This document shows, one piece after another, positions 56,840 to 64,000 of a DNA stretch of 64,000 nucleotides. The stretch is from positions 544,001 to 608,000 of the forward strand of contig CAVVCZ010000004.1 of assembly GCA_963746845.1 (NCBI GenBank), given 5' to 3'. Each line of letters opens with the position of its first letter. Positions within the stretch are counted from its first letter, which is position 1. This DNA is from an uncultured Chloroflexia bacterium. GTDB lineage: Bacteria > Chloroflexota > Limnocylindria > Limnocylindrales > CSP1-4. The notes below the pieces were generated by a model. The model worked only from the letters and a program-made list of their open reading frames with translations, had not been told where the DNA came from and searched no databases. Both the position numbers and the translations under genes were made by a program.

Positions 56840-56916
56840 CGGGGCGTGGCGCAGTCTGGTAGCGCACCAGTCTGGGGGACTGGTGGTCGTCGGTTCAAAT
56901 CCGGCCGCCCCGACCA
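56840..56916 (+). tRNA. tRNA-Pro(GGG)
   Basis: Acceptor CGGGGCG/CGCCCCG, anticodon arm CCAGT-CTGGGGG-ACTGG, T-loop GTTCAAATC, encoded CCA; TAGACT -10-like hexamer upstream. Confidence 0.97.
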
Positions 56917-57132
56917 ATTCCCCCGCACAAAATGGCACTCCAAGGGCGGAGTGTGCCCGGTGCTGGCAGCAACAGAGCGCGGCGGCCCTAGGTGTACACC
57001 TGGCGCACAGAAAGAGGCGCCCCGCCCGGGCAGCTCTAGTCCGCGCCCACCCCGGCGTGTCGTGTGGCTGTCGCGGGCCGTGAGGGCGGCGATCGATCCG
57101 GTCGGCTCACCCCGATCCGAGGCCGGTCACCG

Positions 57133-58071
57133 TCAGTGCCAGCTGTTGCCGCCCCCGTTGGAGATCCGGCCGACGATCACCGCGCGACCGACCGAGGCCC
57201 TCGTCACGGAGTTGGAGACCGTGCCCGTGTTGTCGGACCCGAAGTCCATGGCCACGCCGGTGCCGTGACCGGAGTCCGACACCCGCCAGCCGCTGATGTT
57301 GACACCGGCGGTGTGGTTGCGGAGGACCAGCGCCCAGTTGGCGTTGGCGACCGTCCAGTTGCGGGCGGTGAGGTGGTAGACCGAGGCGCCCGAGCCCCCG
57401 GTGTAGACATGCAGGCCGCTGACTCCGTAGCGGCCGCCGGGGACGCTGGACGCTTGGAGGTGGGACAGGCTGAAGCCATTGAACATCAGGTCGTGCGAGC
57501 CCCTCGAGACGTAGACCACGTGGGTATTCGTGCTGTTGCTCGCCGAGGTGGCGGCCACGTACCGGACGGTGACGCACCGGGCCGTGATGTAGCTCGAGCC
57601 GATGAGCAGGAAGACCCCGGTCTGGCCGAGCAGGTAGTGCTGGAAGACGAACCGGCCGGGGCAGCCGTCGAGGGTGATATGCGCGGCGCCCGAGAAGTAG
57701 AACGCCGGGTCGCTGTAACGCCTGTCGTTGGTTGCGTCGAAGGTCACCGTCGCACCCGGTGCGGGCCGGATCACGAGCGGCGTCCTCCGGGTGATCAGGG
57801 CCCACCGCCAGCTGTGATACACGCCGCCGGACATCTCGATGACGCCGACCGACGGGTTCGCGACCAGCGCCCTGAACGACGACACGCTGATGCTCGGGGA
57901 GACCCGCCGAACTGACCCTGCCGCCGTCGCGACCGATGCCGGGACGATCACGAGGGCCAGCAGTGCGACGGTGGCCAGAGCGATGAAGGCTCTGGTGCGA
58001 TGAGAGCGATGTGCGGGTCGTGGTCGGGGCGGGACGGGCTCGGATGCCCAACGGTCGCCATGCCTGAACAT
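57133..58071 (-). CDS. Secreted right-handed beta-helix (pectin-lyase-like fold) protein
   Basis: Basic N-terminus plus hydrophobic signal ending in ATA-A; GVY, PLVIRPAPGATVTFD, HITLDG, HVVYV patterns; SD AGGAG 9 nt before ATG 58071. Confidence 0.7.
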   Translation of the reverse strand: MFRHGDRWASEPVPPRPRPAHRSHRTRAFIALATVALLALVIVPASVATAAGSVRRVSPSISVSSFRALVANPSVGVIEMSGGVYHSWRWALITRRTPLVIRPAPGATVTFDATNDRRYSDPAFYFSGAAHITLDGCPGRFVFQHYLLGQTGVFLLIGSSYITARCVTVRYVAATSASNSTNTHVVYVSRGSHDLMFNGFSLSHLQASSVPGGRYGVSGLHVYTGGSGASVYHLTARNWTVANANWALVLRNHTAGVNISGWRVSDSGHGTGVAMDFGSDNTGTVSNSVTRASVGRAVIVGRISNGGGNSWH

Positions 58072-58085
58072 CGATCGCATCTCCT

Positions 58086-58157
58086 TTCGGCAACCCGGCT
58101 GACTCGAGAGTCCCGTGGCTTTGCGGCCCCGCCTCACGACGGGTGTGCTATTTCGTG
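58086..58157 (-). ncRNA. GEMM-I (c-di-GMP-I class) riboswitch, A20 variant
   Basis: Minus strand reads CGAAAU-A-GC-ACA-CCCGUC-GUGA-GGCGGG-GCC-GC-AAAGCC-ACGGG-ACUCUCGAGU-CAGCCGGGUUGCCGAA, immediately followed by AGGAG. Confidence 0.88.
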
Positions 58158-58715
58158 GAACCCCTTGCGACCAGGCGATCGGCGGTCGCAACAACAGAAG
58201 CATCCACCCGAGATGGGCCGGAGGCCATAGCGAATGTGGGCCTGCAGGCGGACCCGGTGGTCGTGTCACCCAGGCCGACGTCTGGTGGAGACGGAGGCGG
58301 TCGGGAGGGGGCGTCCTGGGGGACGTTCGTGGGGGCCACGTCGCACTAGTCTACCCATTTGCGGATCGGACTTCGGGTCGTCACCGCAAGGAAGGCAGTC
58401 CAGAACGCTAAACCTTTCCCCCGGACTGATACTCCGCCTTCGCCTTGCCCTGGCCGATGTACTCGTTCGTGGCGATGCTGAACTGGTACTCGCTCTCCTG
58501 TGGTCCGCCGGAAGAAGAACTACGCGCTGTCCCCGGCCCATGGCAGCAACGCTGGCACCAATAGGGCCGCATATCGGCACCCACGCGACCCCCGATTAGA
58601 CCGCGTTTACGCACAAACCGTACGCCCGCAACCGCCGGCGTACGCTACGGGCAAGCCTGCGGGACTGGTGGTCCTCGGTTCAAATCCGGCCGCTCCGACC
58701 AACATCCGAACGTGA

Positions 58716-58748
58716 AACGACCCCGCCGGTAGTCCGAGCGGGGTCGTT
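58716..58748. terminator. 11-bp stem hairpin after attR (terminator-like)
   Basis: aacgaccccgc / gcggggtcgtt. Confidence 0.6.
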
Positions 58749-59122
58749 GACCGCAGTTCTGGCTCGCGACGTCCTCCCGTCGCGCGTGGGGCCGTCACGA
58801 GCGCCCCGGCTTCCCACAGTGCGACTCCAAACCCCTTCAATCCGATCCTCTGGCCAGCCTGGCCAACTCGCTGACGTCGCAACACCCTTGAAGTACCCAC
58901 GCCGCAAGTCCCAGAACTCGGCACGGTCCCGATGCTCGGCAACTCGTCGCTTGTGCTCCTGCAGCAAGCCAAAGAGGACGTCGTCGAGCCCGGGCGAGCC
59001 AGTCGAGCGGCCAATCTTCACCATAGGTCCGACTCGGCTCCGCGTAGCGAACGATCAGGCCAGCGACACCGGGCAATTCAAGGCGACCGAGAGGCCGTAA
59101 CGAAACGGCTGGAATAGCGTCG

Positions 59123-59416
59123 ATGTCGCATGAAGTGGCACGGATGATTCGCGACCGGCCGCTGGCCCATCTCGCCGGGATCGCCGGCATCGTCGGCCAG
59201 TTGGCGAGCGCCTACTGGTACCTCCTATTCCCGTTGCTGGTCGTCCCGTCGCCCACGAGCTACTTCTTCTTCGCAGCGTGGTTCGTCCTGGTCGGGCTCA
59301 CGATCGCCTGGTGGCGAGACCATCCGATGCGTTCGTTCTTCGTTCCGGTCGTGTCGGTGCCGGTCGCAATCCTGCTCCAGTGGGTCGGCACGACATACCT
59401 TGGCTGGGCGCCATGA
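59123..59416 (+). CDS. Small 3-TM membrane protein
   Basis: 97 aa, aromatic and hydrophobic helices. Confidence 0.65.
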   Translation: MSHEVARMIRDRPLAHLAGIAGIVGQLASAYWYLLFPLLVVPSPTSYFFFAAWFVLVGLTIAWWRDHPMRSFFVPVVSVPVAILLQWVGTTYLGWAP

Positions 59417-59644
59417 GAGCGTCACCGACCTCGTTCCGGACGCCGGTGGCAGCCTCCGGAACCCTGATCGCGGTCACATGCAATGGATTGGCTACGTGTG
59501 ACAGCCAGGCCGGCGGCGTCGACGGGCCGTCTTGCGTCTGCGACGGCGCAACGGAACGGTGAGCGAAGCGTTTCCTTGACGGGAGCGCCACAGTGAACCG
59601 CACTCAGTCAGCGAGGTCTGCCGATGCAGACGCGGGAGGTTCCG

Positions 59645-60067
59645 ATGACAGATCCCGAGCTCGACTCCAATCGCCGCGAGACCATCAGCCGCTTCTTCGC
59701 GGCGATCCAGGCGGGCGACTACGCCGTCCTGCGGGAGGTGCTGACAGCCGACGCGATCACCCGCTGGCCGCAAACGGGCGAGCGCATGACCAGTGCGATG
59801 AGTTGCATCCGGGTCTACGAAAACTACCCCGGGGGACCGCCGTCCTACACCGTTCATCGGATCTCGGGCAGCGGAGACGTGTGGGTCGCGGAGTTGGTGT
59901 CCAGCTACAGCGATGGACGCTGGTACACGGTCAGCGTCATCGAGTTCGACGGGGAGCAGATCGCACGGATGACCGACTACTTCGGACCGACCATCCCTGC
60001 CCCGGAGTGGCGAGCGGCGTTGGTTGAGCACGACGAGTTCATGCTCTTGCCAAGTGAGCCAGGTTAG
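59645..60067 (+). CDS. SnoaL/NTF2-like protein
   Basis: RWPQTGER, YENYPG, GSGDVWV, VSVIEF..QI...TDYF, APEWR; SD GGAGG. Confidence 0.85.
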   Translation: MTDPELDSNRRETISRFFAAIQAGDYAVLREVLTADAITRWPQTGERMTSAMSCIRVYENYPGGPPSYTVHRISGSGDVWVAELVSSYSDGRWYTVSVIEFDGEQIARMTDYFGPTIPAPEWRAALVEHDEFMLLPSEPG

Positions 60068-60089
60068 AAGCACAGCGAGGCCAGACGAC

Positions 60090-60530
60090 ATGCGACCGCC
60101 ATCGTCTGCACTCGACGGCGATGGGACGCTCTACGCCTTCCTTTTCCTGGGCTGGATCCCGCCCGCGGTGGCGGCCGTGGTCGGCGGGCTGATCGTCGCA
60201 TTCGCCACGGGCAACATCTTTGCACTCGTCGGGGTCGCCCTCGTCGGGACCGTGGTCGGCTATGTCGCCTGTCTCGCGGTGCTCTTCACCATCGGCAATC
60301 TCCTCGCTGGGCGGGTGGGCGAGCGAGTCGCGAATGGGTTCCTCGTGTTGAATGTCGCGTTCTCGGTTGCCGCCGCGCTCGCCGTCGCCGTCGCCGTCGC
60401 CGCGTCGGGTTTCAAGTTCGATCCAGTTCTCTTCGACGCGGTCGTCCAGGCGATGACGACCGTTCTCGGGCTCATCCTGATCGCCGGGATGATCGTCGCA
60501 CTCGCCCTCATGCGGAGGTCGCGGTCCTGA
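60090..60530 (+). CDS. Hydrophobic membrane protein
   Basis: About 4 TM segments. Confidence 0.6.
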   Translation: MRPPSSALDGDGTLYAFLFLGWIPPAVAAVVGGLIVAFATGNIFALVGVALVGTVVGYVACLAVLFTIGNLLAGRVGERVANGFLVLNVAFSVAAALAVAVAVAASGFKFDPVLFDAVVQAMTTVLGLILIAGMIVALALMRRSRS

Positions 60531-60534
60531 CGGG

Positions 60535-60738
60535 CTATCGCCACGAAGCGAGCATCCACGCCCAGCCGGCCTCCCAGTAGCGTCCGTCACGCTCGAGGCC
60601 GTCCCGGGCCGCCTGGAGCTCCCACCCGGCCATCAAGGCCTCGGCGCGCTCAGGAGACTCGCCTTCGCCGATGAGACGCTGGAGCGTGCCGGCGCGATGC
60701 GCCTGGTAGATGCGTTCGGGCGTCGATCGGCGGGACAT
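60535..60738 (-). CDS. 67-aa hypothetical protein
   Basis: MSRRSTPERIYQAHRAG...RYWEAGWAW; strong SD AGGAGG. Confidence 0.7.
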   Translation of the reverse strand: MSRRSTPERIYQAHRAGTLQRLIGEGESPERAEALMAGWELQAARDGLERDGRYWEAGWAWMLASWR

Positions 60739-60885
60739 CGGCGACCTCCTGCGATGGGGTCGCGCGCCGGCACTCGGCGACCGTGGTTGGCGTGTCCGAC
60801 CGTAGCACTTCCGGCCCATTGATCGGCCCGGGCCGGTGCCGTTCGATTTGGGGTAGGTGGGGCCAAGAGAGCAGGAGTCGCGCGC

Positions 60886-61428
60886 GTGACGTACGTCTGG
60901 CCAGTCTTGTACGTGCTGGCGTTCCTCATCTTGTACACCCTAGCTGCCGGCACCCTCGAGATCAGTGGGATCAGCGCCGCGATCACCAAGCTGGCGCTCA
61001 CCGGCCAGAGGGTCCCCTACTCCAGGGCCCTCGAGTGGTACAACCTGGTGACCGAGGTCCTCGGGCTCATCATCGCCTTCTGCGCGACGCTGGCGACCTG
61101 GTCGATCCGACACCCGGGTGGGGTCCGATCGAAGGTGAATCGGATCGTCGATTCGACGAAGGCACCGAGCGTCCGTGTCCTCGTCGCGTGGTGGGTCATC
61201 GCACCCTTCACGCTCGGCCTCGGCTACATCGCCGCGATCTATTCGTCATGGCGTTTCGCGACCGGCCACCGAAACGGTCGAGCGCCATCGGATCCCGCGC
61301 AGCAGGCGCCCGCGCAGGCAGATGCGCTCGCGTCACGTCTGGCGCAGCTGGACGCAGCTCGCGATGCCGGGCTGATCACGAACCAAGAGCACGCCGACAA
61401 GCGAGCGGCCGCGGTCCAAGCCTTCTAG
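60886..61428 (+). CDS. Membrane protein with C-terminal SHOCT domain
   Basis: 3 TM; RLAQLDAARDAGLITNQEHADKRAA; SD AGGAG. Confidence 0.7.
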   Translation: MTYVWPVLYVLAFLILYTLAAGTLEISGISAAITKLALTGQRVPYSRALEWYNLVTEVLGLIIAFCATLATWSIRHPGGVRSKVNRIVDSTKAPSVRVLVAWWVIAPFTLGLGYIAAIYSSWRFATGHRNGRAPSDPAQQAPAQADALASRLAQLDAARDAGLITNQEHADKRAAAVQAF

Positions 61429-61458
61429 AACGACGGAGGGCCTGGATACCCTTTGACC

Positions 61459-61620
61459 ATGAGCCCATCTGGCGATTGCCGGGGAATGGTGAAGCGCGCG
61501 TTCGTCCGCGAAGACGGACGCTGGATCGAGGTCGGCATCTTCTGCCCGGCCTGCAGGGGATTCTGGCCGACGCTCGAGGCGGCCCGATCGCACAAGGCCC
61601 CGGTAAGCAGCTCGCGCTAG
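61459..61620 (+). CDS. 53-aa CxxC microprotein (MSPSGDCRGMVKRAFVREDGRWIEVGIFCPACRGFWPTLEAARSHKAPVSSSR), not in ORF track
   Basis: TACCCT 6 nt before ATG (leaderless pattern); CPAC motif. Confidence 0.55.
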   Translation: MSPSGDCRGMVKRAFVREDGRWIEVGIFCPACRGFWPTLEAARSHKAPVSSSR

Positions 61621-61702
61621 GGTCCGGATCGCTCGCCGCTCCGGGTGTCGGCTACGTCTCGAGGCTAGATCGACGGCGACGGCGGGCCGCTATCCTCGGT
61701 CG

Positions 61703-62233
61703 ATGGATGCGGCCGTGTGGGGAGTCGTCGGCGTCATCGTCGGTGGCCTGATTACAGGGTTCGTGACGATTCGGGCGGAGAGCATCCGGGCAGACAAGGC
61801 CGCCAAGCTCGACAGCGCGAAGCGGCAGGACGACCGGAGGATCGCCTCAGACGCGTTCCAGCGCGAGAACCTCCTGAAGTTGCAGGAGGCGATCGAGGAG
61901 TGGATCGACAAGGTGATCGACCAAAACGATCGCGAGACAAGGTCGGTCCGTGGTGGAGGCTCTGTCGACTCCGATTCATCGGAGCCGCAGGCAGCGATCG
62001 ACGACGCCACGCGGCGCATGGACGTGTTTGCGCATCGCGTCCGGGACGACGCACTGCGATGGGCCTTCTGGGAAATGTCGGGGATGTATACCCACACTCG
62101 GGCGGAACTCGGTGACCGAGGCACTGACGATCCCATCACGGAAGAGCTGCTCGACGCCCAGGTGGATGCGCTCCAGGAAAAAGAGTCGGCCGTGACGATC
62201 CGACTCGGGGAGGTCTTGAGGGAGCTCCTCTGA
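61703..62233 (+). CDS. Hypothetical protein, N-terminal TM plus helical body
   Basis: VWGVVGVIVGGLIT; TATCCT 6 nt before ATG. Confidence 0.7.
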   Translation: MDAAVWGVVGVIVGGLITGFVTIRAESIRADKAAKLDSAKRQDDRRIASDAFQRENLLKLQEAIEEWIDKVIDQNDRETRSVRGGGSVDSDSSEPQAAIDDATRRMDVFAHRVRDDALRWAFWEMSGMYTHTRAELGDRGTDDPITEELLDAQVDALQEKESAVTIRLGEVLRELL

Positions 62234-62541
62234 CCGACACAAATTCTTGTGTCCCTTGGTTGCGAGATGTGGAGCGCGGGTTGTCGGCGAATTGAGTCGC
62301 CGTTAGGCCGCGCCTAGCGCCGGCAAATACGCCCACCGCGGCCCGCGACGTCCTCGAGGCCAGCTCCACGGGCGACGGTGCGCCGCTACGGTCGTGACCG
62401 TCGGTCCGAGCCCCGGGCGGCAGGGATACCGTGGGGACGATCAAATAGGGCGTTCGCCCAATGGCACGTCCCTTTCCGCCCCGCCTACCTTGCGTGACTC
62501 GGCACGACCGGCGCCGTCGAGGGTGTGTGGAGGTCAGCGCG

Positions 62542-62646
62542 ATGGGCGAAGGTCAGGCAGCGCAGCTGGTCGGGTTCGTGCTCGCGATCGCAGGCCTTCT
62601 GTTGGCGTTGGAGGCCGGACTGCGCCGCGACCGCCGCGGGCATTGA
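62542..62646 (+). CDS. 34-aa single-TM microprotein candidate
   Basis: SD GGAGG; MGEGQAAQLVGFVLAIAGLLLALEAGLRRDRRGH. Confidence 0.45.
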   Translation: MGEGQAAQLVGFVLAIAGLLLALEAGLRRDRRGH

Positions 62647-62901
62647 GGCCGCGAGGAGCCCATACCCGAGGACTGGTCGAAGCTCGATCAGCGGTGCGGG
62701 AGCCGTCACCCTGGGAGATGATCCAGCGGTATCCCGCCCCCCGAGCGGCCACGGTCCTTCGCAGCTGCACCGACGGCAACGGCAAGCCCCCGCGGGCGTC
62801 GGGTGCTTTGACGGTCGCCGTACCATTGAGGTTCGCTTGACCCCCCGCGATGGGGCGTGTCAGCCTCCGTTGCCGGTCGAGCCGCGTCGAGGAGGTGCCC
62901 C

Positions 62902-63300
62902 GTGAATGCGTTCATCGTGGACATCAAGAACAAGCCAGCCGAGCTCGCGAAGGTGGCTGAGGCTGTTGCGCACAAGGGGGTCGATATCACGGGCTTCAGC
63001 GGATCGACCTGTGGCGACAGTGCGACGCTGGCATTGGTCACTGACAACGAGGTCGACACTCGGAGTGCGTTGACTGACGGCGGCTGGAAGTTCCGCACGA
63101 TCGAGCTCGCGGAGACGTCGGTCGCCAACAAGCCCGGCACCCTGGCCGAGGCGGCGCGCAGGCTGTCCAATGCCGGGATCAACATCGAGGCCGCGTTCCC
63201 GACCAGCTTGACGGGGAGCACCGTCCACATCGTCTTCGCGACCGACAACCCGGCAAAGGCCAAGGAGGTGCTTCGCGAGCCGGTCGCTGCCAGCCGCTGA
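62902..63300 (+). CDS. Tandem ACT-domain protein
   Basis: NKPAELAKVAEAV..KGVDI and NKPGTLAEAARRL..AGINI; SD GAGGAGG. Confidence 0.85.
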   Translation: MNAFIVDIKNKPAELAKVAEAVAHKGVDITGFSGSTCGDSATLALVTDNEVDTRSALTDGGWKFRTIELAETSVANKPGTLAEAARRLSNAGINIEAAFPTSLTGSTVHIVFATDNPAKAKEVLREPVAASR

Positions 63301-63399
63301 GGAAGTCGGCGGTCGAAGACCGACATGATGAAGTCACTGAGCCCCGGGCCGATGCTCGGGGCTTCGTGACATCGAACCAGGCCGCCTCGGAGGATCGCC

Positions 63400-63753
63400 G
63401 TGAACTGCAGGCTCCTCTCCTTCGGCCTGATCGAGATTGACGGACACCAGTTCAACCACGACGTGGTGATCGAAGGGGATCGCGTTCGGCGGCGCAAGAA
63501 GGGCCCGTCGAAGTCGCGTCGGGCCGAGTTTGGCCATACGCCGCTGTCGGCCGACGAGGCGATCCCGTGGTCGTCGCCACGGCTCATCGTCGGCACCGGT
63601 TTCAACGGTCAGCTTCCGATCACCGGCGATCTCTACCGGGAGGCCGAGCGACGGGGCGTGGAGATCGTCGCGCGGCCAACCCGTGAGGCCTGCGAGCTGC
63701 TCGCGGCCGCCGACGTCGGATCCCGGGCAGCGATCCTCCACGTGACCTGCTGA
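63400..63753 (+). CDS. Mth938-like (DUF498) protein
   Basis: SFG.IEIDG, RRKK..S, GHTPLS, LIVGTG..G.L, PT.EAC, LHVTC. Confidence 0.85.
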   Translation: MNCRLLSFGLIEIDGHQFNHDVVIEGDRVRRRKKGPSKSRRAEFGHTPLSADEAIPWSSPRLIVGTGFNGQLPITGDLYREAERRGVEIVARPTREACELLAAADVGSRAAILHVTC

Positions 63754-63883
63754 GGTCCGCCTCGTTCGAGGTCTCGTCTATTGCGCCCGATCCGATTGAC
63801 GGGCCGACCCCGCGACGCCTAGGCTCAGGTCAAAGGGCGCTGCGCCGCATTCGCGAGGCTGCCCGAGGGATGGAGGGCTCGCA

Positions 63884-64000
63884 ATGATTCGGCGGATCAC
63901 CGGGATCATCCTTGGAGTGGTGGCCTTCCTGATCGTGTACTGGCTCACGGGCGGGACGGCGACGCCGGCCACCCCCAACTGGGCACTCTCGATCCTGGTC
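63884..64000 (+). CDS. Membrane protein, 3'-truncated by window
   Basis: SD GGAGG; MIRRITGIILGVVAFLIVYWLTGG... Confidence 0.55.
   Translation, partial: MIRRITGIILGVVAFLIVYWLTGGTATPATPNWALSILV

Follow-up and report, generated by a model that had tools for sequence, protein, structure and literature searches.

An A20 GEMM-I riboswitch ahead of a predicted exported beta-helix protein in a Limnocylindria tRNA-Pro islet, and its probable ligand

The islet at tRNA-Pro and its cargo

The window analysed here is the whole 64,000-nucleotide stretch of DNA from an uncultured bacterium. The 90% cluster that contains its IspH includes proteins named Chloroflexota and Candidatus Limnocylindrales, and this bears out the Chloroflexota host proposed earlier from the sequence alone. 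A cmscan search of the entire window returned two Rfam matches above the gathering threshold, a tRNA and RF01051, the c-di-GMP-I (GEMM-I) riboswitch. The islet is the 1.8 kb between tRNA-Pro and a 49-nt repeat of the tRNA end, with a GC content of 0.676 compared to 0.713 upstream. Its features are listed below, G000 being the host genome.

56840..56916, plus strand: tRNA-Pro(GGG), the integration site (ARAGORN; 56840-56913 in Rfam)
57058..57920, minus strand: beta-helix coding part, 85% DNA identity to G000:C5:217667-218522 and C5:197444-198187 (blastn)
57133..58071, minus strand: gene for a 312-aa right-handed beta-helix protein, P0002, predicted to be exported (frame, database protein, model)
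57934..57999, minus strand: hydrophobic signal or anchor segment, approximately residues 25-46 (Kyte-Doolittle 19-residue mean up to 2.49)
57941..58310, minus strand: module of leader, riboswitch and signal peptide, 93% identical to G000:C5:217242-217612, gene P0010 (blastn)
58081..58085, minus strand: Shine-Dalgarno sequence AGGAG, abutting the aptamer, its place conserved across the cassette family
58427..58485, minus strand: 59-nt ssb-like gene fragment, 93% identical to G000:C4:1049062-1049120
58654..58702, plus strand: att-like repeat, 49 nt of the tRNA-Pro 3′ end, 92% identical to 56869-56917, the right edge of the islet

The original prediction placed the gene on a mobile islet at a tRNA. 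The 92% repeat of the tRNA end agrees with this, but an integrase belonging to the islet was not found: none of the four genomic matches to the tyrosine recombinase profile PF00589 falls inside it, and within 1.8 kb a serine recombinase would have no space next to the gene. Judging by sequence, the ssb-like fragment is probably the remnant of a decayed element; its counterpart on contig C4 lies in a frame that we take, by eye, to be SSB-like. Among the matches listed, the islet cargo was absent from tRNA-Pro in 42 other genomes of the genus. Repeats of the tRNA end 3′ of tRNA-Pro in genomes G016, G002 and G005 suggest an integration hotspot. The rest of the window (58703-64000) still has a low GC content (0.665), carries small orphan ORFs (SnoaL, SHOCT, an ACT pair, DUF498) and is probably further acquired DNA.

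By sequence comparison the islet gene is chimeric, its parts coming from paralogues at the host polysaccharide locus. Its upstream module matches the cassette of P0010 on contig C5, the second A20 cassette of the host, and approximately 240 nt of leader ahead of the start codon are retained at 93% identity. The C5 paralogues lie inside, or some 14 kb past, a polysaccharide cluster at 183-205 kb, where 50 selected frames were read and a sugar epimerase, a DegT aminotransferase, a sugar transferase, a flippase, GT2 and GT4 were recognised. A G20 riboswitch and a gene for a GAF-GGDEF-EAL protein follow approximately 15 kb beyond the paralogues. Since the gene is composed of C5-like segments and no integrase accompanies it, the islet is a non-autonomous insertion built from parts of host origin. 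A single excision event is not established because the donor identities differ (85% vs 93%). The donor segments are adjacent on C5 (217242-218522), in reverse order relative to 57058-58310 of the window, an arrangement that circular permutation would give. The paralogue within the cluster (G000:C5:197444-198494) has an apparent frame change near its C-terminus, judging from the tblastn pieces. One 151-nt contig of sequencing run X1, which may share its source with the assembly, spans the junction of leader and beta-helix part with 0 differences; the whole islet was spanned by none of the sequencing-run contigs examined.

The database protein P0002 begins at 58071, and AGGAG (58085-58081) stands directly 3′ of the aptamer, 9 nt ahead of this ATG, as had been proposed. 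Two other starts were considered and rejected: the in-frame ATG at 58080, which has zero spacing to the Shine-Dalgarno sequence and is CTG in a paralogous cassette, and a long GTG frame from 58269, ruled out by Shine-Dalgarno spacing and by the paralogue. A consensus scan, which is insensitive in a GC-rich host, revealed 0 sigma-70-like promoter sites.

The product had been described as a secreted beta-helix protein, and both parts of this description agree with our predictions. A basic N-region followed by the hydrophobic stretch at residues ~25-46 suggests export. P0002 had no match in Pfam, and a protein Atlas look-up placed it with beta-helix clusters at 0.95. An AlphaFold2 model built from a 10-sequence alignment had a mean pLDDT of 79.8, with residues 1-44 below 50; its best structural match had a Z score of 24.0 with an rmsd of 2.2 over 223 aligned residues. 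Beta-helix lyases, hydrolases and tailspikes dominated the 50 structural matches listed, with many ties, while Foldseek returned nothing at E<=0.001. Comparison with 7eea, the alginate lyase 6kfn, the rhamnogalacturonan lyase 5olq, VexL (6fi2) and WceF (6tgf) gave Z scores of 20-24 over ~220-240 residues at 7-15% identity. P0002 shares with these proteins the modelled fold and a link to a polysaccharide locus. It differs in having no Pfam family, many tied matches, a beta-helix domain poor in acidic residues (9 D/E) and a catalytic activity that is putative. Several residues, of the types His, Tyr, Trp, Arg and Asp, are invariant in 10 homologues; P0002 keeps the invariant residues of the family, and its 312-codon frame is open. 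Members of the cassette family typically start with an FWDG-type N-terminus, which a hydrophobic segment and a Pro/Thr linker follow; their C-terminal domains vary and look carbohydrate-related by eye. A search for related loci in named genomes returned one distant locus (26%). From the model, P0002 may be a glycan-binding or glycan-cutting protein.

The aptamer and its pairing with the Shine-Dalgarno sequence

The riboswitch match covers 58086-58159 on the minus strand and the full model (1-87); its score of 60.4 bits (E 2.4e-09) exceeds the cut-off of 35, in accordance with the GEMM-I architecture originally proposed for this strand. Positions within the aptamer are given below; G20, A47 and C92 are numbered as in published accounts of Vc2.

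58086..58159, minus strand: c-di-GMP-I (GEMM-I) riboswitch aptamer (RF01051, full-length model)
58154..58160, minus strand: 5′ side of P1 plus its extension; the pairing partners are 58089-58088 and the Shine-Dalgarno positions 58084-58081 (constrained folding, 33 homologues)
58149, minus strand: position-20 base, A (Rfam alignment; consensus G preceding the GC that opens P2)
58126..58145, minus strand: P2 with GUGA tetraloop at 58137-58134 and lineage-specific internal-loop changes
58122, minus strand: A47-equivalent junction base, A, intact (alignment)
58090, minus strand: C92-equivalent, C, the partner of the ligand's second guanine (alignment)

The sequence and the Rfam alignment placed the GUGA loop, the AAAG junction and the end of P3 where they had been described. 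The alignment also confirmed A at position 20 (58149), so that the RNA is of the A20 kind that characterises GEMM-Ib and not of the strict G20 type. Elsewhere, every position of the pocket and of the tertiary contacts is intact. Two further departures from the Rfam consensus were observed: C at both 58145 and 58126 of the P2 internal loop, where the consensus has A and A, and a linker of 4 nt between P1 and position 20, compared to the usual 5 nt. A U at the C92-equivalent position favours adenine ligands. The host does have one DAC, but c-di-AMP is disfavoured as a ligand because the C92-equivalent is present (58090). The role of C92 as partner of the second guanine is described in the accessible parts of PMC6140456 and PMC5888326.

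Conservation was assessed with 33 aligned cassettes chosen for a Shine-Dalgarno sequence right after the aptamer; four more, with a different linker length, were skipped. Scored against a structure that combines the Rfam consensus and this RNA's own sequence, helices P1, P2 and P3 were paired in 93.8% of 891 cells with 25 two-sided changes, and 0 of 500 shuffles scored as high. The interhelical tertiary C-G pair was kept in all 33 homologues. Two C-G pairs reaching into the Shine-Dalgarno sequence were kept in 30 and 32 of the 33, and the pair adjoining them was A-U in 14, U-A in 7, U-G in 1 and unpaired in 11. The islet copy has a mismatch at this covarying P1 position. Translational control had been suggested for the cassette, and the abutting Shine-Dalgarno sequence together with the A-U/U-A covariation of the P1 extension that pairs with it argues for this mode.

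In constrained folding of the islet RNA, enforcing the aptamer lowered the unpaired probability of the Shine-Dalgarno sequence from 0.54 to 0.09 at a cost of 3.7 kcal/mol; in the free fold the P1 5′ strand pairs with P3. Of 19 cassettes, 14 were predicted to have a less open Shine-Dalgarno sequence in the aptamer state, 4 a more open one and 1 an equally open one. In the host's second A20 copy it was closed in both predicted states, and with the longest leader tried it was closed even without ligand, the free fold being dependent on the 5′ end.

The 4 of 19 cassettes with a more open aptamer state and the change of free fold with transcription start would also fit a c-di-GMP sensor that works otherwise, either turning expression ON or acting on mRNA stability, over a matrix adhesin made at high c-di-GMP; adhesins do occur among beta-helix folds (PfbA was among the matches listed). 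We regard this as very improbable, given that the Shine-Dalgarno sequence lies within a P1 extension showing compensatory change and that Vc2, in the accessible text of PMC7371385 and PMC9262584, is described as a translational OFF switch.

Position 20 and the search for a cGAMP source

A20 had been read as a sign that cGAMP might be the signal. Ser348 of GacA is the Hypr signature, and an S348D substitution turns this enzyme into a pure diguanylate cyclase (PMC6456294, in its accessible part); a GGDDF enzyme that retains the Ser also exists, according to the available text of PMC8835794. In the host genome, which is 92% complete, 18 GGDEF matches were found, 13 with the canonical motif, two with GPDE and three degenerate. 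Ser or Thr at the Ser348-equivalent occurred in none of the 18 and no Asn-type cyclase was among them, all 15 intact or near-intact domains having Asp. A GGDEF on contig C10 was considered as a Hypr candidate, GacA being its second-best PDB match, yet it carries Asp. All three host HD-GYP proteins carry Rxx(K/R) and none RxxQ/N; the former is the c-di-GMP form and the latter that of cGAMP phosphodiesterases, as stated in the part of bioRxiv 10.1101/600031 that could be consulted. Two further profiles gave no host match: SMODS (PF18144), which matched in 3 of 14 controls, and PF21654, which matched in no control either.

For other genomes we used a DNA pattern, G-x3-G-[ST]-x23-GGDE[FY], the spacing of which agrees with GacA chain 6d9m; fixed-spacing patterns of this kind overlook cyclases that carry indels or lack the upstream glycines. 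The Ser/Thr pattern was found in 0 of 43 genus genomes (58-93% complete), while its Asp version gave 390 matches in all 43. One unpublished genome, G010, is counted in these tallies, in the RF01051 survey of the genus and in the islet-cargo comparison (1 riboswitch row, 6 of the 390 Asp matches), and the conclusions do not depend on it. In a draw of 401 genomes of the class the Hypr pattern gave 5 matches, 4 Thr orthologues in genus g4 and 1 Ser enzyme. Ala/Gly/Val and Glu at the Hypr position were each found in 0 of 78 genomes, and a looser pattern (GGDDF, [AS]GDEF) produced 16 extra matches that are not GGDEF-like by eye. Thus the check for Hypr-type GGDEFs proposed earlier was negative in both host and genus.

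Several of the cyclases encountered are noted in their own right. The Ser-type enzyme (L099, G311:C325) is on a short contig of a genome 6% contaminated and without a GEMM-I match, and may be contamination or transfer. GGDEFs whose Hypr position holds Thr or Asn (L095-L098 in genus g4; L174-L187 in families f1 and f3) are candidate Chloroflexota enzymes of changed product specificity. Those of g4 with Thr are apparent orthologues of host C5:354138, and in them Glu replaces the Asp that comes after the conserved Asn. At the cross-dimer Arg position, 5 of the 15 host GGDEFs have His (C6:191164, C9:54977, C5:354138, C4:1403117 and C4:466673) and 1 has Leu; the accessible text of PMC6456294 gives Arg as present in 94% of diguanylate cyclases.

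RF01051 was found in 35 of 36 genus relatives, and none of 24 genomes from a small-genome family had it. The genome search for further copies suggested earlier brought the host total to four, two G20 and two A20. Across the genus, 79 of 80 matches were tabulated (the table omits G010, and 4 rows were assigned to a P2 type by eye): position 20 was G in 61 and A in 3 aptamers with canonical P2, and A in 8, G in 6 and C in 1 with variant P2. A20 is therefore far commoner with variant P2 (8/15) than with canonical P2 (3/64). In the class draw, 39 A20 matches were found in 35 genomes spanning 16 genera and 3 families, and 35 of the 39 had variant P2. Variant-P2 aptamers of the 401 genomes had G in 40, A in 35 and C in 3, the 43 non-A copies being located in 40 genomes. 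Both A and G copies occurred in 5 genomes. In one of these, G269, they are 2.4 kb apart; this variant-P2 pair (L111 and L141, G269:C4:373458 and 375906), one A20 and one G20, is a natural matched pair.

Presence of A20 did not follow the enzymes. A Ser/Thr cyclase was found in only 1 of 35 A20 genomes, and Thr/Asn cyclases in 4/43 A20 genomes vs 8/35 non-A20 genomes (Fisher p 0.12, the genomes not being independent). In genus g4, where 7 of 11 genomes have A20 and no non-A variant copy exists, the A20 cassette was found in 1 of 4 Thr-bearing genomes vs 4 of 5 others. A tree of 38 cassette proteins, built from the first 170 residues and partly unresolved, the proteins being chimeric, required 11 changes at position 20, at least 5 of them forced by well-supported branches; a change count as low was obtained in 47 of 200 label shuffles. 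Sister cassettes joined by fully supported branches carry different bases at position 20, and the same gene class lies below A, G and C copies.

The host G20 copies have other surroundings. One (L002, G000:C5:232124-232201, minus strand) is followed by apparent very short hydrophobic ORFs, an arrangement common in the genus; it and its orthologues sit downstream of the GAF-GGDEF-EAL gene and upstream of ilv/leu. The other (L001, G000:C4:727365-727462) precedes a 31-aa hydrophobic ORF and then a sugar-binding-lipoprotein-like gene apparently split over frames.

These data bear on whether A20 aptamers could be true cGAMP sensors, fed by a synthase without the Hypr signature, with A and G paralogues reading two signals. 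Candidate synthases would be Asp-type GGDEFs with a cross-dimer His, a divergent CD-NTase, or an enzyme whose gene the assembly lacks. The spread of A20 over 35 genomes, 16 genera and 3 families, the 7 of 11 g4 genomes without a non-A variant copy, the 5 genomes with A and G copies together and the occurrence of Thr- and Asn-type GGDEFs in the class would be consistent with such sensors. So would two published observations, as far as the accessible parts of the sources go: the A20G change by itself turns the cGAMP switch Gmet_0970 into one for c-di-GMP (PMC6456294), and phosphodiesterases of the cGAMP type are more widespread than known synthases (bioRxiv 10.1101/600031). However, the host has neither a Ser/Thr/Asn cyclase nor an RxxQ/N phosphodiesterase, non-Asp cyclases are not enriched in A20 genomes (with the opposite tendency in g4), and fully supported sister cassettes differ at position 20 over the same gene class. 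We consider such sensing unlikely; it keeps a small share of our confidence because A20 is tied to the altered P2, cyclases with a cross-dimer His exist, genus g4 is all-A20 among its variant copies and the host genome is 92% complete. The same evidence (no Hypr enzyme in host and genus, no link of A20 to non-Asp cyclases, switching of position 20 among A, G and C) makes cGAMP an unlikely signal in the host, contrary to the original suggestion.

The C20 copies, 3 in the class and 1 further in the genus, raise another explanation, that position 20 is under relaxed selection and the islet copy is weak or decaying, being a poor binder or ahead of a barely expressed gene. The P1 mismatch of the islet RNA, the decayed N-terminal FWDG motif and long branch (1.9) of its protein, the recent origin of the chimeric gene, the ssb fragment and lack of an integrase in its islet, and the failure to find a sigma-70-like promoter point in this direction. 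On the other hand, the remaining pocket and tertiary positions are intact at 60 bits, the 312-codon frame is open with its invariant residues retained, and the ~240 nt leader is kept at 93%; the promoter scan, moreover, is insensitive in a GC-rich host. We judge decay to be an improbable account of the islet copy.

A probable c-di-GMP switch and its relatives

The preferred reading is a functional GEMM-I riboswitch that turns translation OFF, with c-di-GMP as the likely working ligand in the host. Sensing of c-di-GMP is most likely because no cGAMP enzyme is recognisable in the host and related switches swap position 20; the census, the tree and published A20 affinities together favour c-di-GMP, with A20 as a tolerated state of lower affinity. 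According to the accessible text of PMC6140456, Vc2 G20A has affinities of 53 nM for c-di-GMP and 120 nM for cGAMP, the natural A20 aptamer Cbe 1-2 binds them at 30 nM and 463 nM via protonated A20, and A20 alone does not predict selective cGAMP binding. Changes in lower P2 are reported to affect selectivity (PMC9262584), which, with A20 concentrated among variant-P2 aptamers, speaks against this reading.

Under this reading c-di-GMP, bound via protonated A20, would stabilise P1, whose extension would pair its 5′ UUCC strand with GGAG of the Shine-Dalgarno sequence and thereby block initiation. When c-di-GMP falls, the 5′ strand would pair with P3 instead and the beta-helix protein would be made. 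With the switch OFF at high c-di-GMP, the exported protein would be made once the matrix-building state ends, a timing that would fit the trimming or release of the cell's own polysaccharide.

The islet RNA belongs to a well-known riboswitch family. With Vc2 (RF01051), the tfoY OFF switch of V. cholerae, it shares the P1-P2-P3 architecture, the C92-equivalent, the junction A, the tetraloop-receptor layout and a position next to the Shine-Dalgarno sequence, and it is probably a translational OFF switch as well. Vc2 is described as such in the parts of PMC7371385 and PMC9262584 that are accessible. In contrast to Vc2, the islet RNA has A20, two A-to-C changes in the P2 loop, a 4-nt linker, P1 running straight over the Shine-Dalgarno sequence and a Chloroflexota host. 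The Geobacter GEMM-Ib RNAs (Gs1761 and Gm0970, with the Hypr enzymes GacA/GacB) share A20 and the GYRA-type loop. In Geobacter, 13 GEMM-Ib switches lie over cytochrome and pilus genes (PMC8835794, PMC9262584, accessible text), whereas in the Chloroflexota host A20 is present in 2 of 4 copies, over glycan-type exported proteins, and is not fixed. The Chloroflexota host also has no Hypr cyclase and no RxxQ/N phosphodiesterase, and P2 of the islet RNA opens with G-C, as in Vc2. Two 2015 PNAS papers reportedly define GEMM-Ib, and their supplements are said to list tested A20 RNAs that may bear on the selectivity rules.

Biochemically, by analogy, the islet RNA is likely to resemble the bispecific A20 aptamers (Cbe 1-2 of C. 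beijerinckii and the engineered Vc2 G20A), with which it has in common A20 on an otherwise c-di-GMP-type scaffold. It would then probably also bind cGAMP in vitro. It differs from them in its variant P2 loop.

In a literature search with most subscription journals outside its range, and with the accessible parts of PMC12452182 and PMC5473149 included, no relevant paper on GEMM-I in Chloroflexota or Limnocylindria was found; nor did the literature searched contain one in which c-di-GMP governs polysaccharide-modifying proteins exported by Limnocylindria. What is new here is the class-wide census of A, G and C at position 20 and its lack of a link to Hypr-like enzymes. The census calls for caution, as A20, often taken as a cGAMP marker, is present in dozens of genomes without recognisable cGAMP enzymes. 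The natural A/G/C sister aptamers, with their near-identical scaffolds, provide an easy test set for the determinants of c-di-GMP versus cGAMP selectivity.

It is doubtful, but would be of consequence, that within a GEMM-I sub-lineage found across the class Limnocylindria (altered P2, short linker, P1 over the Shine-Dalgarno sequence) the A20 members sense cGAMP or a mixed dinucleotide made by a non-Hypr synthase. If they were cGAMP-selective, a novel synthase would be implied, and through the A/G paralogues the exported glycan enzymes of this abundant, uncultured group of Chloroflexota would answer to two signals. On the preferred reading, with c-di-GMP as ligand, the cassette suggests that Limnocylindria place polysaccharide-modifying proteins destined for export under the control of c-di-GMP.
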